Shown here in pieces: positions 6,193 to 47,287 of a DNA stretch of 59,398 nucleotides. Each line of letters opens with the position of its first letter. The first letter of the stretch is position 1. The notes under the pieces were generated by a model. The model was not told the origin of the DNA. It made no database searches and was given only the letters and a program-made list of their open reading frames with translations. Location of the stretch: positions 87,411 through 146,808 of the forward strand of contig JAZJZK010000002.1 in NCBI GenBank assembly GCA_040389905.1. Direction: 5' to 3'. A program made the translations under genes and the position numbers. Source of the stretch: Gemmatimonadota bacterium. GTDB lineage: Bacteria > Gemmatimonadota > Gemmatimonadetes > Gemmatimonadales > Gemmatimonadaceae.

Positions 6193-6221
6193 CCTCTTTG
6201 GCTGTGTAAGAACAAAGATTG

Positions 6222-6360
6222 AACGCAGAGGTCGCGGAGGACTGCGGGAAACTGCAACAGCAATGAACCACAGAGGACACAGAGGAACACAGAGAACTGC
6301 ATGTCTCTGTGTCCTCTATGTCCTCTGTGTCCTCTGTGGTAAATGTCTTGCTTTTGCTTG
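6222..6360. repeat. repeat family B (9-nt periodic CACAGAGGA palindrome)
   Basis: Perfect 20-bp inverted repeat 6267-6286/6321-6340 between convergent genes. Confidence 0.88.
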
Positions 6361-22045: not shown

Positions 22046-22150
22046 AATGAACCACAGAGGACACAGAGAACGCGGAGGACTGCGGAAGAACGAGAATGAA
22101 GTCCCGCTGTCCTCCGTGTCCTCTGTGTCCTCTGTGGTAAGTGCTCTTGC
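22046..22150. repeat. repeat family B
   Basis: Perfect 18-bp inverted repeat 22051-22068/22121-22138. Same AATGA and ..CTTGC flanks as the 6.3-kb copy. Confidence 0.88.
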
Positions 22151-22155
22151 AAAGA

Positions 22156-23664
22156 TTAATGAAGCCCCACCTGTCCCTTCACCGACGCAAACAACTTCGC
22201 CGAATCAAACCCAACTCCATCTTTGAACACGATTTCCATCTTCTCGACGTCGGCGATACGCGAAGACGGATCACCGTTCACGAGAATGAGGTCCGCGCGC
22301 TTGCCAACAGCAATCGATCCAATACGCGCTGCGCGGCCGAGATACTCGGCACCATTCAACGTCGCGACCTTGATTGCCTCGAGCGGCGTGAGCCCTGCCT
22401 CGACAAGTAGCTCGAGCTGTCGCTGATTCGAATAGCCTGCCACGACACCGCCATAGCCCGTCGGATCGGTACCAGCCAGTAGCAGCCCTCCGGCGCGAAA
22501 GAACGCCAGTTCGAACTGCATCTCCTTCGGGAACGTCGTTGCGTACGCGGATGTCGGTTGCCCGGCAATAGCCGTCCATCTGCGCGTGTATTGATCGCGC
22601 GCTTCCGGGAGCATGGCATCCAGTGCCCCCTGCGGCGCTTGCGGACGACCTGGCGTGAACGTCTCGAAGACGGTGAGTGTCGACGTCAGAGCAACACGCT
22701 TCGATACGAGGAAATTGATCAGCGATTGCACCGCCTCGCCATTCACGTCCAGCGACATCAACGAAGCGGTGACGCCGCCATTCGCCGTCGGGCATTCGTC
22801 CGGCTTCTTCCCAGTGACAAAATCGCTCGCGACGACCAGGCCATGTTCGAGGTTGTCGATGCCGAGCGTCGCGGCTTCTCGGAATGTGACGGAGCAAAGG
22901 TGACCCGTCACCTTGAGCTTTCGGCGATGCGCTTCCTTCACGACCGCGGCCAACTCGGCGCGAGTGATCTGCATGTACGTCTTGAACGACGTCGCGCCGC
23001 GATCCGCCCAGTGTGACACCATCTCGGTGGCATCCTTCGGGCCGGTGAGCGCATGGACCTGATAGATCGGAAGCCCAGGTCCATTCAAGTAGGGCGCGGT
23101 CACGTCGAGCGAGGGGCCGACGGTCTTCCCACTATCGATGGCTCGCCTGAGCTCGAGGTCTGCGTACCCAGCCATGTTGCCCGCCGTGCGCGCCGTCGTG
23201 ACGCCGCCGGCCAGATACAACCTCGGGAAGCTGAAGCCCTGTTCATTGTAGACGCTCCCGCCGCCCGACGGATAGAACATGTGCTCGTGCATCATCACGA
23301 GCCCAGGCATGACGGACTTGCCCGTTGCATCAATCACGCGCGCGCCGGCCGGAATGGAGACGTGATCGGCGTCGCCGAGGGCTCGAATGACGCCCTTCTC
23401 GAACACAATCGTCTGGTCCGTGCGCGCCGCGGCACCCGTCCCGTCGATGACTCGTGCGTGCGTGATCGCAACCACGGGCGCGTCGACACTCACGAACGGT
23501 CGCACCGCGTCCGTGATTGGCGCTTGCGCGCCCACGACCGCCGGGAGTAACCATCCAATAATCGCGAGTAGGCTGGTCCGCTCGTGTTGTCGCCTGCTTG
23601 CCCTCGAGGAGAGAAAGCGACGAAGGGAGCGTAGCGAAGGGCCTGCACCTGTTACGTAGGTCAT
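22156..23664 (-). CDS. secreted amidohydrolase
   Basis: PGLVMMHEH, GHL, LEHG, AGTDP, GKRADL motifs. ATG overlaps the S9 stop (ATGA). The N-terminus contains a repeat element. Confidence 0.88.
   Translation of the reverse strand: MTYVTGAGPSLRSLRRFLSSRASRRQHERTSLLAIIGWLLPAVVGAQAPITDAVRPFVSVDAPVVAITHARVIDGTGAAARTDQTIVFEKGVIRALGDADHVSIPAGARVIDATGKSVMPGLVMMHEHMFYPSGGGSVYNEQGFSFPRLYLAGGVTTARTAGNMAGYADLELRRAIDSGKTVGPSLDVTAPYLNGPGLPIYQVHALTGPKDATEMVSHWADRGATSFKTYMQITRAELAAVVKEAHRRKLKVTGHLCSVTFREAATLGIDNLEHGLVVASDFVTGKKPDECPTANGGVTASLMSLDVNGEAVQSLINFLVSKRVALTSTLTVFETFTPGRPQAPQGALDAMLPEARDQYTRRWTAIAGQPTSAYATTFPKEMQFELAFFRAGGLLLAGTDPTGYGGVVAGYSNQRQLELLVEAGLTPLEAIKVATLNGAEYLGRAARIGSIAVGKRADLILVNGDPSSRIADVEKMEIVFKDGVGFDSAKLFASVKGQVGLH
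23587..23650. repeat. repeat family A arm with nested 29-nt element, inside the amidohydrolase CDS
   Basis: TTGTCGCC-TG [CTTGCCCTCGAGGAGAGAAAGCGACGAAGGG] AGCGTAGCGAAGGGCCTGCACC. Confidence 0.75.
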
Positions 23665-30547: not shown

Positions 30548-30844
30548 ATGTCGGTGTCACACAAATCATCGTCGCCGACGCCCACTTCTTCGAGCGCGGC
30601 CAATAGTCCAGTCACCGTTGAAGTGAAGGCCGGCGTGTTCAAGAATACGTGTCTCGAGTTGATGGATGACGTGCACGCGCATCGGAAGGAGGTCGTCATT
30701 ACCAAACACGGCACCGCCGTCGCAAAGCTCGTGGCGCCCGACGTGCAGGCGCCAAGCGCATTCGGGTTCCTGCGGGGAACGTTGCTTGCGCACGGCGATA
30801 TCGTGTCGCCGGACTTCGAGCCCTGGGGTGAGCTCGGCGCATGA
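30548..30844 (+). CDS. Phd/YefM family antitoxin
   Basis: AGVFKNTCLELMDDV...VVITKHGTAVAKLV. AGGAGG RBS before ATG 30548. Confidence 0.88.
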   Translation: MSVSHKSSSPTPTSSSAANSPVTVEVKAGVFKNTCLELMDDVHAHRKEVVITKHGTAVAKLVAPDVQAPSAFGFLRGTLLAHGDIVSPDFEPWGELGA

Positions 30845-31377
30845 TGCGCGCGTCATCCGTGTGGACGCCATCGGAACGTCCGCAGTACGACGGTCCGCTG
30901 TTACTCGATACGCACATCTGGATCTGGCATCTGGAAGGTGACGAGGCGCAGATGGCAGCTGGGACAGTCGCGCTTCTCGATCGCGCAGGAACCGCCGCTG
31001 GCCTGCATGTCTGCGATATCTCCGCGTGGGAGATTGCGATCAAGGCACGAAAGGGGAAGCTCCATTTCTCCGTGGACCCACTCGTCTGGCTCCGTCGTGC
31101 CGAGCGTGCGCCGGGGATGCGCGGGTTGGCGTTGGATCGGGAAATTCTGCTCGCGAGCACGAGCCTGCCAGGCGAGATGCACAACGATCCAGCGGATCGG
31201 ATGCTCATTGCCGCGGCGAAGCTCAACAACCTGCCGTTGGTAACGGCAGATGCTCAGATCATCGAGTACGCGACGGCGCACCCAGGGACGCCCGTCGTAG
31301 ACGCTCGGCCGCCCGAAGAATCGTCGCGAGGCGTAGCGCTGCTACGGTTGCGTCGACCGATTCTCGAACCAGCGTAA
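30841..31377 (+). CDS. vapC: VapC PIN-domain toxin
   Basis: LLLDTHIWIW, SAWEIAIK, HNDPADRMLIA, LVTAD motifs. ATGA coupling. Confidence 0.9.
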   Translation: MMRASSVWTPSERPQYDGPLLLDTHIWIWHLEGDEAQMAAGTVALLDRAGTAAGLHVCDISAWEIAIKARKGKLHFSVDPLVWLRRAERAPGMRGLALDREILLASTSLPGEMHNDPADRMLIAAAKLNNLPLVTADAQIIEYATAHPGTPVVDARPPEESSRGVALLRLRRPILEPA

Positions 31378-33288
31378 CCCGCCTGCAGACGTCCCGACGA
31401 GAATGTCCGGACGCCCCTGGCCGTGCAGGGCTCCTACTGCGGGTATCGCGCCCGAATAACTCTTCAGCACAAACGTCGAGTCGCGCTCGAACGTGATTTC
31501 GTGCTGCGCCGCGCTGCCCACGCTACGCCACAGTTCGAGCGTCCCATCGTCCGACCCGATCAGCAAGTCGAGCCTCCCGTCACCGTCGAGATCGGCCAAG
31601 GTCGGCGCGCTGCGCCGCGGAACCTTGATCCCCTGAAAGGTGTCACTCACCAACTGAAACTTCGGTGACGTTTTCGTTCCCACGTTCTTGTACAGGATGA
31701 TCGAACCCGACGCCTTTCCAATGACGAGGTCCACCAGCCCATCGCCATCCAGGTCGCCGAAGCTCGGCACTGTGTTGCTGCCGCGCGTAATCGTGACGAG
31801 CGCACTGTCCGCGAGCGAGAAGTGCGGCGCCGCACGTGTCCCGGTATTGCGATACCACTGGATGTGGTCCGTCCACGTGCCGACCACGATGTCGGGCAGA
31901 CCGTCGCTGTCGAGATCGACGACCGACGGCGAATAGCTGAATTGTCCACGAATGGGCAACGGCCCCCGCTCGCGAAACGCGGGCTGCGCCGCGGAGCCGG
32001 TGTTCTCGTACCACGACACCGATCCGGTCGTGCGGTCTGCCGGATCGGCTTTGCTCCCGACAACGAGATCCAGCAATCCATCCCCATTGAGATCCGCGAT
32101 GGACGGTGCCGCATCGCTGCCGACGTCGATCATCGGAATCGCACGCTTTGTCTTGACGCTCCAGTTGGCCTTCGGCGACTGGGTCACGGAATAGAGATTC
32201 TCGATTGACGTCCGCGACGGTCCGTAGGCTCCGCCGATGACGCCCATGACGAGATCGACATTCCCATCGCCATCGACGTCACCGAACGTCGGCGCGTTGT
32301 AGCCGGATGTCAGCACCGGCTTTGCCAGCGGAAAGCGTGTTGGCTTGCTGCTGAAATCGGGTTGCGAACAGGAGCCGGTGTTCTCGAATCGCAGGAGTCC
32401 CTGCTCGAAGAAGTCGCCCCAGAAGAGGTCGCGCACACCGTGTCCCTTCCCACTCACGTCGGCGAAAGCGAGCGTGTTTGCGCCGTGCAGACGAGTCGTA
32501 GCCGAGGGCGTCCGAACGTGATGCGGCGCACCGTCGTCTTCACGCATGAACGAACTCCCGGTATCCGGCACGATCGACCCGCCCGTGACCTCCGGTCCGA
32601 GCACTTCGATTCCCTGCCACGCTTCCTCGATCAGGCGGAATCGGGGTGAGCCGTCGGGACTCTTGCCCTCTGCTTCGAACCGATCGACAACGCCTTGAAC
32701 GCGTCCGATGAACAGATCGAGCCGGCCATTGCAATCGATATCGACGGCGGTGAGGATATTCTGCCGATCGGCCGCAATGGCTCGGCCGTCGACGTCGCGG
32801 ACCGTGTCTCCGAGCGTGACAAAATGCGGTGTTGTGGCGGTGCCGTCGTTGCGCCACGCGCGCACGTAACCAGTCGGCATCTCACTGAAGAGATCGACCT
32901 TGCCGTCGCCGTCGATGTCGACAAAGCGATACCACTCACCGATGTCGAGGTTCTGGTACTTGTCCGAGCGCCAGATCCACTCGTCACGAACCCGTTCGAA
33001 GTACAGCAGGCTGCCGAAGCGTTCTTGCACAAACAACTCCGGCTTCCCGTCGCCGTTGATGTCAATGAGTTGCGGACGCGGTACGTCAAAGCCGCCGATG
33101 AACGGTGCAGGGATCAGTGTACCGGCGATGTCGGTGACGGGGATGCCGGACACGCGTGCTGTGAAATCCCATTTAACTGCGAGGAGGTGCGGGCCCTTCG
33201 CTGCGCTCAGGGCGACAAACCGAGCGGGGAGGCCCGCACCTGCCGTTACGACGACCAAAAGGCAAAGGGCGCCCGCACGAAGATTCAT
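31342..33288 (-). CDS. secreted FG-GAP/VCBS repeat protein
   Basis: About ten DxDGDGxxDL Ca-binding repeats and a signal peptide. ATG 33288 overlaps the upstream stop (ATGA). Confidence 0.88.
   Translation of the reverse strand: MNLRAGALCLLVVVTAGAGLPARFVALSAAKGPHLLAVKWDFTARVSGIPVTDIAGTLIPAPFIGGFDVPRPQLIDINGDGKPELFVQERFGSLLYFERVRDEWIWRSDKYQNLDIGEWYRFVDIDGDGKVDLFSEMPTGYVRAWRNDGTATTPHFVTLGDTVRDVDGRAIAADRQNILTAVDIDCNGRLDLFIGRVQGVVDRFEAEGKSPDGSPRFRLIEEAWQGIEVLGPEVTGGSIVPDTGSSFMREDDGAPHHVRTPSATTRLHGANTLAFADVSGKGHGVRDLFWGDFFEQGLLRFENTGSCSQPDFSSKPTRFPLAKPVLTSGYNAPTFGDVDGDGNVDLVMGVIGGAYGPSRTSIENLYSVTQSPKANWSVKTKRAIPMIDVGSDAAPSIADLNGDGLLDLVVGSKADPADRTTGSVSWYENTGSAAQPAFRERGPLPIRGQFSYSPSVVDLDSDGLPDIVVGTWTDHIQWYRNTGTRAAPHFSLADSALVTITRGSNTVPSFGDLDGDGLVDLVIGKASGSIILYKNVGTKTSPKFQLVSDTFQGIKVPRRSAPTLADLDGDGRLDLLIGSDDGTLELWRSVGSAAQHEITFERDSTFVLKSYSGAIPAVGALHGQGRPDILVGTSAGGLRWFENRSTQP
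33185..33241. repeat. repeat family A inside the FG-GAP CDS
   Basis: AGGTGCGGGCCCTTCGCTGCGCTCAGGGCGACAAA plus a degenerate second arm ending GGCCCGCACCT. Confidence 0.82.
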
Positions 33289-34457
33289 CGGGCGCCTGGA
33301 CCGCCCATTCCGCTGGGTCCGATGCCGAGCGGCAGGGTCTTCTCGACTTTGCCAGTGGCGACGTTGACGACGGACAACCAACCCGTCTTCGGTGCGGGAG
33401 CGGGCATCCCGGTCATTCCTGCCATGCCAGGCATGTTGTCGTGTGCGCTCTTGCTCGCCGATACCGCACCCGTGTTCTGGTTCACGACGAAGAGATACTT
33501 CCCGTCGCGGCGAAGAATCATGTCATACGGCTGCGCAAAGGCTCCGCTGAACGTCCGCACCACCTTGCCGGCAGCGAGATCGACTTCGGCGATAGCGCTA
33601 CCACCGAAGAGTGAGAAATAGGCGCGCCTACCGTCTGGGGAGAACACCGGGTCCCATGGCTTGCCTTCAACAGCAAACTCCGCAATCGGAGCAAGGGGCG
33701 GTGTTTTCGTGAGATCGAACACGAGGACGGTGTTGGACAGTTCCCCGCCGACGATGAGCCGCGTGCCGTCTGGGCTGACCGCGAACTGCACCATGGAGCG
33801 CGTCACATTTCCGGGCAACGTCGTGAGCGTGACGCGACCCGTGGCCGTCTCGAGCGACGCAAACCGATTCTCGGCGAGTGACGCGGTGTGCACCCACTTG
33901 CCGTCGCGCGTCGTGACGAGCGCGTGCGGACGCGGAATTTGAATCTCCTGCTCCTCGACCATCGTGAATGTCGAACGCTTGATGACGCCGAGCGACTTCG
34001 GCGGATTGACGGCCGTCATCGAGCGCCCGACGTATAGCGTGTCGTGCACTGGATCCAGCGCGACGAGACCGGGTGTCTCCATGGACACCTGCCCGACGAG
34101 GCGATTGGCTCGGTCGAACTTGAGAACCTTGCCGTCACCGATGAGCGTCGCGTACCAGAACGAACCGTCAGGCTCGACGATCGCGTGATGCGGCTTCGCG
34201 TTTGGTGAGAAACCGAGCTTGGTGAGATCGATAACGGTGTCGACGACGAGCTTCGTCTGGTCGACGACGGTGATCGACGCGCCGCTCTGGTTGGTGATAT
34301 ACAGCTTGGCGCCCTGCGCGGTAGTCGCGCAGGGAATGAGTAGCGTGAACGCAGTTCCGTAAGCCGCTCGTTTTGTCGCCCTGAGCGCAGCGAAGGGCCT
34401 GCACCACCGACGTGCAGATCCCTCGACTGCGCTCGGGATGACAAAGGCCTTGCCCAT
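33285..34457 (-). CDS. secreted YncE/YVTN-type beta-propeller protein
   Basis: LYITNQ, SPDG, LFVVNQ repeats. ATG 34457 overlaps the upstream TAA (TAATG). No later in-frame start precedes the hydrophobic segment. Confidence 0.85.
   Translation of the reverse strand: MGKAFVIPSAVEGSARRWCRPFAALRATKRAAYGTAFTLLIPCATTAQGAKLYITNQSGASITVVDQTKLVVDTVIDLTKLGFSPNAKPHHAIVEPDGSFWYATLIGDGKVLKFDRANRLVGQVSMETPGLVALDPVHDTLYVGRSMTAVNPPKSLGVIKRSTFTMVEEQEIQIPRPHALVTTRDGKWVHTASLAENRFASLETATGRVTLTTLPGNVTRSMVQFAVSPDGTRLIVGGELSNTVLVFDLTKTPPLAPIAEFAVEGKPWDPVFSPDGRRAYFSLFGGSAIAEVDLAAGKVVRTFSGAFAQPYDMILRRDGKYLFVVNQNTGAVSASKSAHDNMPGMAGMTGMPAPAPKTGWLSVVNVATGKVEKTLPLGIGPSGMGGPGAR
34371..34445. repeat. complete repeat family A palindrome inside the YncE-like CDS
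   Basis: TTTTGTCGCCCTGAGCGCAGCGAAGGGCCTGCAC-cac cgac-GTGCAGATCCCTCGACTGCGCTCGGGATGACAAA. Confidence 0.9.
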
Positions 34458-37123
34458 TACGGAACCGGTTTCCGCGTGCCGTCGCGCACCATGAAGAATC
34501 CTTCTCCGATACTCGTCACGCCGATCGCGCCATTCTTGAAGAACGGATAGTTGTTCCACGTCCCGGCAAAGCTCGCGTCGTTCTCACCCGGGCTGGTGTC
34601 GAGGAAGCCGACTTCCTTTGGGTTCTTCGGATCGGAGATGTCGAGAATGCGAAGCCCAGCTTTGTAGTTCGACTGGTACATGCGATCGCCCTTCACATAC
34701 AGGTTGTGATCGATCGCGTGCGTGGGGCCGATGTGTTCCTTCACCATGATCGGCTGTTCGAGGTCCGCAACGTCGAACACCATCGTGCGCGTGCCTTCAG
34801 CGGAGCGTCCGAGGTTGGCAGATTCGTCGAGCTCGTCGTTGAGATACCAGTGCCGTTGGTCATCGGTGAACCAACCCTGGTGCGTGTAGCCCGGCGTCGG
34901 ATAGTCCGCATGCGAGAGCACCTTCACGTTCTTCTTGTCGGTGACATCCTGAATGGAGACGGTCGTCTCGTTCGACGCCATGCAGATCTCATGGCCCGTG
35001 TACCGCTTGTCCGGCCCGTGATACATGACGCACTGGATGTCGTGCGTGTACCCGCCCTTGGCGCGACCTGTTCCCACGTCGGCAAAACATCCGGCGAACG
35101 TTGGTTTGAGTGGCACCTTCATGTCGATCATCAGCGAGCCGCCGCTGCACCGCTCACCACCGGAAGACGTGCCAACGGCATAGGCATATCCACTCGCCTC
35201 GTTGACCGCGATGTCGTGAATGCTTCCGGCGTCGAAGTGCGCGTCTTCAGTGAAGTGCTGCGGCTTTTTCACGTTGCGGAGCTTCGTCAGGTCGAAGATC
35301 TGAATGCCATGGTGATCGCCTGAACCGTCGGACACGATGAGCGCGTAGTTCTTGTACGTCTTGATCTCGCGCCAGCTCGACGCATTCGCTCCTTTGGTGC
35401 GCGGCAGGTCGCCGAGATACCGCGGATGCGTCGGGTCGGTGACGTCGACGAATGCGGCCGCGTCAGTTCGGCCGATGATGGAGATGTCATGCCCCGTGAC
35501 GGGATCGGTCCAACCCCAGCTTCCGCTGAGATTCACACCACGCTTGCCGCCCACGGCCGAGATTGGCATGAACGACAGCAGTCCGGTGTTGCCGCATTCG
35601 AATGCGGTAGCCATTCCGTTTTCACAATGCACTTCCTTGCCGAGCACCGCGGGAAACCGTTCCTGTGGCGGCGGCATGATCAGGCTCTTGAGATTCCAGT
35701 CACCGCCCTTGGCCTTGCTCAGAAAGCCAACCGTTCCCCCGCCGCCGCCATCGCCCGGCATGCCCACGATCGCGGAATTGCCGCTGACGGCGAACGACGC
35801 TGACCAGAGCGCGCCGGGTTCGAGCGAGTCGACGCCGAGCTTCGTCATGCCGCCCCAGGCGCCATCCTTGTTCGCATGCGCTCGGTAGATCCGTCCCGAG
35901 CCGTCGCTGCCTGGTGCGCCGATCCAGAGTTCGTCGCCGACAACGCCAATCGCTGATCCGAACGCAACATTACCGAAGTCGAATGGCGCGAGGGTGCCGA
36001 TCATCCGCCATGAACCGAACGATGCGCGTTCATAGGTAATGACGATACCGGCGCCGAGGCCGATGTTTGCACCGCCACGCCCACCGCCGGCAGCCAAGCC
36101 ACCTGCACGGCCGCTCGGCGCAAGCGCTGCAAGCCGGGCCACGATGGAATCACGCGCCGCACCCGCCGAGCTGCTCGCGAGCTGAATGAGCAGCGAGTCG
36201 CGCGTGGGGTTGGGCAGCGTCGTCGGCGTGAAGTTCGTGCCGGGTGCGCCGACGATGACCTGATCTCCCTTCACGGCGACCGCGCCACCGAAGAGCGAGT
36301 TGTCCGGGAGATTCTGCGGCGCAACCTGTTCGGTCTCCTGCATCCACCGCCCCGACGCGTCGCGACGGAATACGTAGACCGCGCCCTTGAGCTTTCTCGC
36401 CGGCGCGCCAATCGCGACACGGTCCCTATCGATGGCGATTGCAGATCCGAACCGATCACCGGTGACGAGCCCCTGCGCAGGCAAGGCGCCGCCACCGGAC
36501 CAGTTTCCATCTTTGCCGCGCTGGAAGACGTACACGGCACCGCCATTCGTCTCGCCGGGCGCGCCAACGAGGACCAGATCGCCAAGCACAGCGAGCGCCG
36601 CGCCGAATTGTGCGCCGCCAGTTCGCGTGGCCGAAAGATTGCCGGCGGACGTCCACTTCATGTCCGCGCCGCGCTTGAACAATTGCACCGACCCCACTGC
36701 GGTATCGACCGGAGCGGGGCCTGCAGGCTGCGGCGCCCCGCGGCCGCCTCGTCCTACCGGAGCCGTCGGCGGCGGACTCACTTGCCCGACGAGCAATGTT
36801 GTTCCCTCGGCCGCGAGCGCCGAGCCGAATCCATCACCGCCGACCGATGCGGCGGAGACGAGTTGGCCCGCTTCCTTCCAACCAGCCGCGCTCTGTCGGT
36901 AGATATGAACGAGACCGGGGGCCGGCGGCCCTCCGCCCCGCCCACCGCGTCCGCCAACGACGACGTTCGGTTCCCCGACGAATGCGAACTCGCCGGCGAT
37001 GGCGACGGCGCGGCCGTACGCCCGGTATGCTGCCGTCTCCGAGCGCGAAACGGTCGGAGCGGACAACGCGGCGGCGAATCCGCTGCCGGCAAGTAGAATG
37101 ACGATGTGTTTGGGTAGGCTCAC
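34457..37123 (-). CDS. choice-of-anchor B (LVIVD-like) protein with N-terminal FG-GAP repeats
   Basis: FGSALA/VGAPG repeats, then WGWTDP, SSWREIKTY, YTHQGW, DELDE, IDHNLYV, GLRILDIS, WNNYPFF. Confidence 0.87.
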   Translation of the reverse strand: MSLPKHIVILLAGSGFAAALSAPTVSRSETAAYRAYGRAVAIAGEFAFVGEPNVVVGGRGGRGGGPPAPGLVHIYRQSAAGWKEAGQLVSAASVGGDGFGSALAAEGTTLLVGQVSPPPTAPVGRGGRGAPQPAGPAPVDTAVGSVQLFKRGADMKWTSAGNLSATRTGGAQFGAALAVLGDLVLVGAPGETNGGAVYVFQRGKDGNWSGGGALPAQGLVTGDRFGSAIAIDRDRVAIGAPARKLKGAVYVFRRDASGRWMQETEQVAPQNLPDNSLFGGAVAVKGDQVIVGAPGTNFTPTTLPNPTRDSLLIQLASSSAGAARDSIVARLAALAPSGRAGGLAAGGGRGGANIGLGAGIVITYERASFGSWRMIGTLAPFDFGNVAFGSAIGVVGDELWIGAPGSDGSGRIYRAHANKDGAWGGMTKLGVDSLEPGALWSASFAVSGNSAIVGMPGDGGGGGTVGFLSKAKGGDWNLKSLIMPPPQERFPAVLGKEVHCENGMATAFECGNTGLLSFMPISAVGGKRGVNLSGSWGWTDPVTGHDISIIGRTDAAAFVDVTDPTHPRYLGDLPRTKGANASSWREIKTYKNYALIVSDGSGDHHGIQIFDLTKLRNVKKPQHFTEDAHFDAGSIHDIAVNEASGYAYAVGTSSGGERCSGGSLMIDMKVPLKPTFAGCFADVGTGRAKGGYTHDIQCVMYHGPDKRYTGHEICMASNETTVSIQDVTDKKNVKVLSHADYPTPGYTHQGWFTDDQRHWYLNDELDESANLGRSAEGTRTMVFDVADLEQPIMVKEHIGPTHAIDHNLYVKGDRMYQSNYKAGLRILDISDPKNPKEVGFLDTSPGENDASFAGTWNNYPFFKNGAIGVTSIGEGFFMVRDGTRKPVP

Positions 37124-47038: not shown

Positions 47039-47287
47039 ACAAAGCAAAAGCTTTACCGCAACCGCACAAAGCAAAAGCTTCACCGCAGAGGACGCAGAGG
47101 CCATGCGCACCCAGAGCAACCTACGATGCGCCGGACCGCAGAGGTCGCTGAGGACTACGAGAACAGAACCAAACCAAACCCCCCACCGCCGTTCCGCAGT
47201 CCTTTGCGCCCCTCTGCGGTCCGGCGCATTGACGAAGGCACGGAAGGCCGAACCTCTGCGTCCTCTGCGGTAAGCTTTGCTCTTGCT
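47039..47287. repeat. repeat family B variant forming a ~210-nt nested hairpin
   Basis: 19-bp inverted repeats at 47082-47100/47253-47271 and 47126-47144/47211-47229. Confidence 0.85.

Follow-up and report, generated by a model that had tools for sequence, protein, structure and literature searches.

In the window, the stretch of 59,398 nucleotides analysed here, an inverted pair of TGTC-tagged repeats lies in frame at the beginning of a predicted export leader, ahead of its hydrophobic core. It is probably translated as a basic extension of 25 to 27 residues, which would be cut off together with the leader on export, and judging from sequence comparisons it is best regarded as a near-neutral insert.

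The focal gene (33285-34457, minus strand) encodes a beta-propeller protein of 390 residues with YVTN-type repeats (PF10282, E 4.5e-10; TIGR02276, 35 bits against a cut-off of 27.85). It had been labelled YncE-like in the first-pass annotation, a name that no family search returned. The upstream gene on the same strand (34457-37123) codes for a choice-of-anchor B family protein with FG-GAP/LVIVD repeats (TIGR04312, 414 bits against a cut-off of 100). The ATG of the focal gene at 34457 takes its A from the last base of the upstream TAA stop codon (TAATG). The repeat FVIPSAVEGSARRWCRPFAALRATK makes up codons 5-29 (34445-34371). After codon 1, the next in-frame ATG, GTG or TTG is codon 124, in agreement with the earlier claim that no later start precedes the hydrophobic segment.

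The rest of the predicted signal peptide, its residual hydrophobic and cleavage region, is encoded by codons 30-47 (34317-34370, minus strand), with a putative cleavage site placed at A-x-A-like motifs. The orthologues of the focal gene have clear leaders; among 46 orthologues, the focal protein ranks last in the strength of its hydrophobic core (best 12-residue Kyte-Doolittle mean of 1.59 against a median of 2.28). The focal leader was above a hydrophobicity threshold of 1.9 and below a stricter one of 2.2, and has a proline within the core. Given this weak core, export of the focal protein may be impaired. The mature region is under purifying selection, with dN/dS values of 0.05-0.11 against five orthologues, values that include the period preceding the insertion; a sixth comparison was void due to an indel. 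In a quick tree the focal terminal branch measured 0.12, compared with a median of 0.086. The relatives are labelled Gemmatimonadaceae and Gemmatimonadales. A Tat motif has a twin arginine with hydrophobic residues at +2 and +3. A Tat signal was rejected here: the repeat-encoded RR is followed by W-C-R, and no RR motif is conserved in the orthologues.

The 75 nucleotides of the repeat consist of two different REP-type units of about 33-41 nt each, both TGTC-tagged and facing each other. The type 1 unit (34412-34445, minus strand) is read in sense in codons 5-15 (nhmmer 44.9 bits) and has 128 near-full copies in the genome. The type 2 unit, read in antisense in codons 18-31, extends together with a conserved 6-nt flank (34365-34370) over 34365-34405 on the plus strand (nhmmer 46.3 bits; flank profile from 147 copies). 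Each base of the TGTC tag is conserved in 95-100% of the 128 copies of unit 1 and the 147 copies of unit 2. In unit 1 the stem is imperfect and opens with AT, in unit 2 it opens with GC, and the tail reads CTG. Since the flank of unit 2, CGCTCG, is also conserved (each base in 67-88% of the 147 copies), codons 30-31 and possibly a few more are repeat-derived as well. The leader that remains when the 25 codons are removed had been taken for a plausible ordinary signal peptide; with codons 30-31 derived from the repeat, it is not a clean pre-insertion state.

Combined, the two units fold into a single long, imperfect hairpin with a 7-nt loop (34371-34445, minus strand), which is free of stop codons in the three forward frames. 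As RNA, the hairpin was calculated at -60.6 kcal/mol (z -4.8) and none of 200 shuffled sequences was as stable; as DNA, it had a z of -6.7 against shuffles. Single units folded no better than shuffles. The strong hairpin begins 12-13 nt downstream of the A of the focal ATG. With respect to the palindrome of 75 nt that codons 5-29 had been said to represent, the sequence and the hairpin are as described; a single, fixed and perfect palindrome was not found, and the repeat continues past codon 29.

In a profile search of the 5.08-Mb genome, 561 units in 405 clusters were detected, and the reversed genome gave no match. Single units account for 266 of the clusters, tag-outward pairs of the focal type for 79 and tag-inward pairs for 29. 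The 88 adjacent pairs of the tag-outward type span 53-150 nt, mostly 83-95, and these varying lengths rule out a fixed element of 75 nt. A MITE has a fixed length, terminal inverted repeats and a target-site duplication; the length here is variable (53-150 nt), and among the relatives there was no close empty allele in which a duplication could be sought. No ORF called by our in-house gene caller was overlapped by 238 of the 405 clusters. At 158 same-strand junctions, the repeat starts at a median of 30 nt past the upstream stop codon. The copies described elsewhere in the window (at 1, 13564, 20419, 28379/28504 and 47343) belong to the family, but none is a complete copy: they consist of one unit only or of a pair in another arrangement. 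A further family, built of tandem 9-nt units, is present at 6221-6354, 22059-22152 and 47134-47163. Around 30550-31377 on the plus strand, a short ORF and an overlapping ORF of 178 residues were seen, which by eye resemble an antitoxin/PIN-domain toxin pair.

The start position was examined in 45 unique orthologues of at least 58% identity, after 13 duplicates, loci without the upstream gene and the mis-assigned locus L059 had been left out. In 35 of them an ATG or GTG overlaps the upstream TGA (RTGA). Five (L002, L043, L057, L133 and L136) have lost this RTGA overlap and appear to use a TTG situated 11 nt ahead of the last base of a TAA or TAG stop, with an open frame, and five begin 6-37 nt later. 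The TTG of L133 is the only ATG, GTG or TTG ahead of the mature protein. In most orthologues an ordinary leader follows directly after the start. In the source genome (G000) the stop is TAA and the overlapping ATG lies one codon further, in the same frame as the RTGA of most relatives. With overlapping starts in 40 of the 45 orthologues, the proposed start at the upstream TAA is well supported.

No repeat pair was present at the focal junction in 41 of the 45 orthologues. Different repeat pairs were found at this junction in L002, L003, L044 and L048, and a short remnant in L043. In a quick tree of the mature proteins, repeat pairs appear at four places, counting G000. L003 is the sister of the empty L004 (SH-aLRT 99), and L044 and L048 are sisters of each other, so that the insertion events are not all independent. 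Among the relatives found, the best was 82% identical, which is not close enough for a true empty allele. The alignment of orthologue N-termini that had been suggested for finding empty sites yielded empty junctions, as in L004, and not a close empty allele.

The reading frame at the junction was then compared over five genes, adding to the focal one four G000 genes whose leader contains a repeat, each with 19 orthologous loci. In the four added genes, an overlapping start followed by a plain leader is the usual state among relatives. There were 113 scorable junctions, with 8 loci without an upstream gene left out; the conclusions are the same with or without L252, an empty junction from the unpublished genome G012. 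The repeats were searched with a regular-expression detector, which was noisy (8 of 113 reversed junctions matched, against none with nhmmer), and the matches were checked by eye. The detector flagged 14 of the 113 junctions. One of these, L055, was false, leaving 13, and one repeat-looking junction, L263, had been missed.

All flagged junctions, including the 13 real ones, and 95 of the 99 others have a start no more than 11 nt from the stop of the upstream gene, with an open frame behind it. The in-frame junctions use three different frames of the repeat and both orientations. For an untranslated spacer about one third would be expected in frame; observed were 13 of 13, corresponding to about ten independent events. 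An untranslated spacer with a new downstream start is very unlikely because all 13 keep the frame. Most of the repeat-bearing orthologues have a later ATG, GTG or TTG, either within the repeat or behind it; L265 alone lacks one, and those of L295 lie within the hydrophobic core. The argument is therefore one of frame conservation and not of absent alternative starts. The conserved overlapping start and the frame kept at 13 of 13 junctions support the first-pass claim that the repeat would be translated in frame.

The gene following the focal gene codes for an FG-GAP protein (31342-33288) and is ATGA-coupled to it. The profile search detected a second in-frame unit after the hydrophobic core of its predicted signal peptide (33186-33219, minus strand). 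In this FG-GAP gene, which serves as an independent check, repeat sequence past the core was observed at five loci (G000, L002, L003, L004 and L041). At this position it would be translated if the protein is exported, since a later start cannot keep the signal. The same search found a partial unit (23627-23649, plus strand) which is read in antisense and in frame within the leader of a gene for an amidohydrolase-like protein with an ATGA-overlap start (22156-23664, minus strand). Both units, which lie in predicted export leaders, had escaped notice in the first-pass annotation.

Other arrangements were seen in such leaders. A repeat piece of 30 nt is present four to five times in tandem, in frame, inside the leader of L208 (G000:C8:233690 onward) and of the downstream gene of L002, which suggests that the repeat grew by slippage after its arrival. 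Short tandem repeats of another kind, with units of 7-9 nt, were found in or just before the same leaders in L045, L046, L049, L050, L127, L154 and L291. The leader site hence collects several kinds of intergenic repeats. Cytoplasmic proteins also contain in-frame copies, and the leader bias is for this reason not exclusive. An error-prone DNA polymerase (L213:2-3448, G000:C64; NF004225 above cut-off) has two separate in-frame insertions. Single cases are a TrhP-like protein (L214), a sugar ABC ATPase (L215), where the repeat lies between the two halves, a CoA ligase (L216), a GlcE-like subunit (L212) and a CheW-like protein (L211), where it forms an N-terminal extension.

The preference for export leaders was analysed with gene calls from in-house scripts and a home-made rule that combines hydrophobicity and a cleavage motif. 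The tests were anchored at the start codon; an earlier screen had scored repeat residues as core and so missed the focal gene. An overlapping start that is open into the next gene was found at 769 of 2186 same-strand junctions. With the repeat residues masked, 14 of the 20 coupled starts with a repeat were signal-like, compared with 197 of the 749 without (odds ratio 6.5, p 7e-5). Under six settings the number varied between 12 and 15 of 20 (p 7e-5 to 6e-4). The enrichment of signal-like leaders at coupled starts is roughly five- to six-fold. The excess in export signals that the first-pass annotation had expected from a genome scan was thus observed at coupled starts, as judged by the home-made predictor.

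When repeat-bearing junctions with an overlapping ATG or GTG were considered, the frame was kept at 18 of 26 signal-like ones (p 2e-4 against one third) and at 13 of 29 others (p 0.13). Sixteen genes with a repeat in the leader were chosen as candidates without reference to coupling; nine of them have an overlapping start, compared with 200 of 1051 repeat-free signal-like genes (p 0.001). For open coupling among repeat-bearing junctions only, 13 of 72 signal-like against 7 of 86 others was not significant (p 0.09). The idea of signal peptides as tolerated landing sites holds with respect to the enrichment and needs an addition: proximity to the upstream stop, together with coupling, brings the repeat there. 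In G000 the repeats begin at least 13 nt past the start in all 20 cases, and the absence of close copies (0 of 20 against 19 of 138 elsewhere) is marginal. A rule that keeps the hairpin out of the footprint of the initiating ribosome was rejected, as the orthologue repeats begin 3-12 nt past the start.

A possible partner of the repeats is a small gene of the Ssn-like GIY-YIG type. G000 has two such stand-alone genes of about 100 residues, each with an adjoining repeat, and NCBIfam gave no family match for them. Of 54 further genomes from the genus, 21 contain homologues, and 25 of 28 matches were obtained as loci. A tagged hairpin within 250 nt was present at 22 of the 25 loci, and on both sides at 19, compared with 33 of 1121 control windows. 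Where a genome carries a leader repeat, an Ssn-like gene is usually present too (7 of 9, compared with 14 of the 45 remaining genomes; p 0.02, in an unevenly sampled set of incomplete genomes whose kin are not independent). At one locus (L036:1402-1722, G000:C13) the GIY-YIG gene draws its stop codon and last residues from its flanking repeat, read on the antisense strand. The degenerate SRM pattern was not found in the window and was found 30 times in the genome, where about 51 matches are expected by chance. Strict membership in the SRM class was ruled out, as the published pattern is unmatched.

We propose the following route for the insertion. The abundant repeats gather shortly past stop codons. 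At the focal junction the downstream start overlaps the stop, and the position after the stop corresponds to the first codons of the next gene. Because the consensus units contain no stop in 10 of 12 frames, only their length modulo 3 matters. Ribosomes would start again at the overlapping codon and translate across the hairpin. Frame-breaking insertions would be purged, and cleavable leaders would tolerate the others far more than the N-termini of cytoplasmic proteins do. Spread or maintenance of the repeats may be linked to the Ssn-like GIY-YIG gene, which has them on its flanks. The sequences themselves document the placement of the repeats, the coupling, the conserved frame and the leader bias, whereas translation of the insert, export, cleavage and the part played by the GIY-YIG gene are inferred. 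In all likelihood the insert is near-neutral rather than a regulatory device.

A wider reading is that coupled signal peptides are a general entry of Ssn-associated repeats into the proteome, and that a sizeable share of the export signals in Gemmatimonadaceae is built from, and dependent on, a selfish repeat. Repeats would land after the stop, be read as the n-region and gradually take the place of the original basic and hydrophobic segments. We regard this generalisation as improbable. Improbable as well is that the repeat has been co-opted, with the arginine-rich and hydrophobic frames of the repeat replacing the native n- and h-region and being needed for export. In L044, L048, L281 and L283 the second unit abuts and partly forms the hydrophobic core. 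In the focal gene, C23:10319 and C1:15756 it contributes the basic residues ahead of the core, and there is one comparable published case, RU-2 in YPO1552 (PMC2759123). The use of three frames and both orientations, with some of the peptides acidic or proline-rich, argues against selection of a particular peptide. Co-option is compatible with a near-neutral leader insert.

The repeat could also have damaged the focal leader, so that the ATG is little used, the protein is not exported, or translation initiates after the repeat at a non-AUG codon (ACG at codon 38, ATT at 41 or CTG at 52). The weak core with its proline points in this direction, as do the repeat-like flank, which may reach into the core, and the strong hairpin shortly after the ATG. 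We consider such damage unlikely, since the frame is open, the terminal branch is normal and dN/dS is about 0.1, a value that includes pre-insertion time. An overlapping start has been retained, in the form TAATG instead of the RTGA of most relatives, and the non-AUG codons would cost most of the signal peptide.

The least probable alternative, with only a slim chance of being correct, is that the hairpin is kept as an operon regulator which tunes coupled re-initiation, pauses ribosomes in export, or protects or cuts the intergenic mRNA: the hairpin is stable, a segment of 9 nt (34354-34362, minus strand) complementary to 34457-34465, where the upstream gene ends with its final codons and stop, is predicted by folding to contribute to an outer helix of 11 bp over the stop/start junction, repeats recur at both junctions of the focal operon and REPs are thought to work at the RNA level (PMC3733652), but 41 of 45 orthologues have no repeat pair at the junction and the copies differ in sequence, length and distance from the start. 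The accessibility of the start region was the same in the 20 repeat-bearing coupled starts and in 200 sampled from the 749 repeat-free ones (p 0.95), which rules out start sequestration as a shared feature. The outer helix over the stop and start was absent in the four repeat-bearing orthologues that were folded. Neither a terminator nor a sigma-70 promoter was detected at the repeat. Rfam gave two weak matches below the gathering scores, neither of them at the repeat, and a known structured RNA was ruled out. The suggestion that the hairpin tunes translation or mRNA processing in the operon is hence unsupported.

With the near-neutral leader insert as the preferred explanation, the results have several consequences. 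The conserved frame in independent insertions indicates that N-terminal repeats are read. For one lineage this settles the doubt in the REP literature whether N-terminal intragenic repeats are real or result from wrong start calls. It also provides a simple rule for the entry of repeats into proteins: landing next to a stop, coupling and a cleavable leader. The filled and empty leaders are a natural series on how export and re-initiation tolerate an extension of the n-region and early mRNA structure. For annotation, repeat-bearing starts are easily shifted downstream.

The closest known repeats are the CGTC/TGTC-tagged REPs, reported near the 3' ends of genes by Di Nocera, De Gregorio and Rocco 2013 (PMC3733652). 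The G000 repeats carry a terminal tag, are present in high copy number, are mostly intergenic and often form inverted dimers. They share with the published REPs the TGTC variant of the tag, the frequent inverted dimers and the location after stop codons, and apparently the short imperfect stem. The paper also describes intragenic dimers of 20-30 codons, many of them N-terminal and suspected to reflect mis-annotated starts, and insertions in DnaE2 genes. Intragenic dimers of this kind are shared, and the two polymerase insertions in L213 match the remark on DnaE2. The published REPs have a terminal CGTC, TGTC or CCTC tag and a short palindrome, with a stem of 8-9 bp that opens with a complementary AT, a loop of 4-5 nt and the tail CCA, whereas in G000 the stem of unit 2 opens with GC and the tail is CTG. 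Signal peptides are not connected with REPs in the main text of that paper, nor does Gemmatimonas occur in it, and the orthologues of G000 support the upstream start.

The Rickettsia palindromic elements (RPEs) are translated within Rickettsia proteins (PMC2229807, PMC10969869). RPE-4 and RPE-6 are repeats of the CGTC class (PMC2229807, PMC10969869, PMC3733652). As with RPEs, the G000 repeats lie in frame in conserved protein genes whose relatives have no repeat. Both are palindromic repeats in frame in unrelated proteins and apparently near-neutral. RPE-1 is about 150 bp long and encodes one conserved peptide in metabolic genes (PMC2229807, PMC10969869, PMC3733652), whereas the G000 units have 33-41 nt, are read in any frame and are enriched in leaders at coupled starts.

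In Ssn/NTS-SRM (PMC11893778), a stand-alone GIY-YIG gene of about 100 residues is flanked by GTC-tagged hairpin repeats with hundreds of copies, as here. The published SRM pattern fails on the G000 units, and the likeness rests on the architecture of gene and repeat. Movement of the repeats by Ssn is not described for that system (PMC11893778).

The nearest precedent for the signal peptide is given by Delihas 2007 (PMC2759123), where the predicted signal peptide of YPO1552 begins with residues encoded by an RU-2/YPAL repeat. This is one locus with a different family of 168 bp, and its description includes no enrichment test, coupling or series of empty sites (PMC2759123). In the literature searched, which covers few subscription papers, a systematic bias of REPs towards signal peptides or coupling was not found except for this single case. 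The focal repeat does not represent a new kind of system. In conclusion, CGTC REPs inside genes, the RPEs of Rickettsia and a single signal peptide derived from a repeat were known already, and what appears to be new is the measurable preference of the repeats for coupled export leaders.
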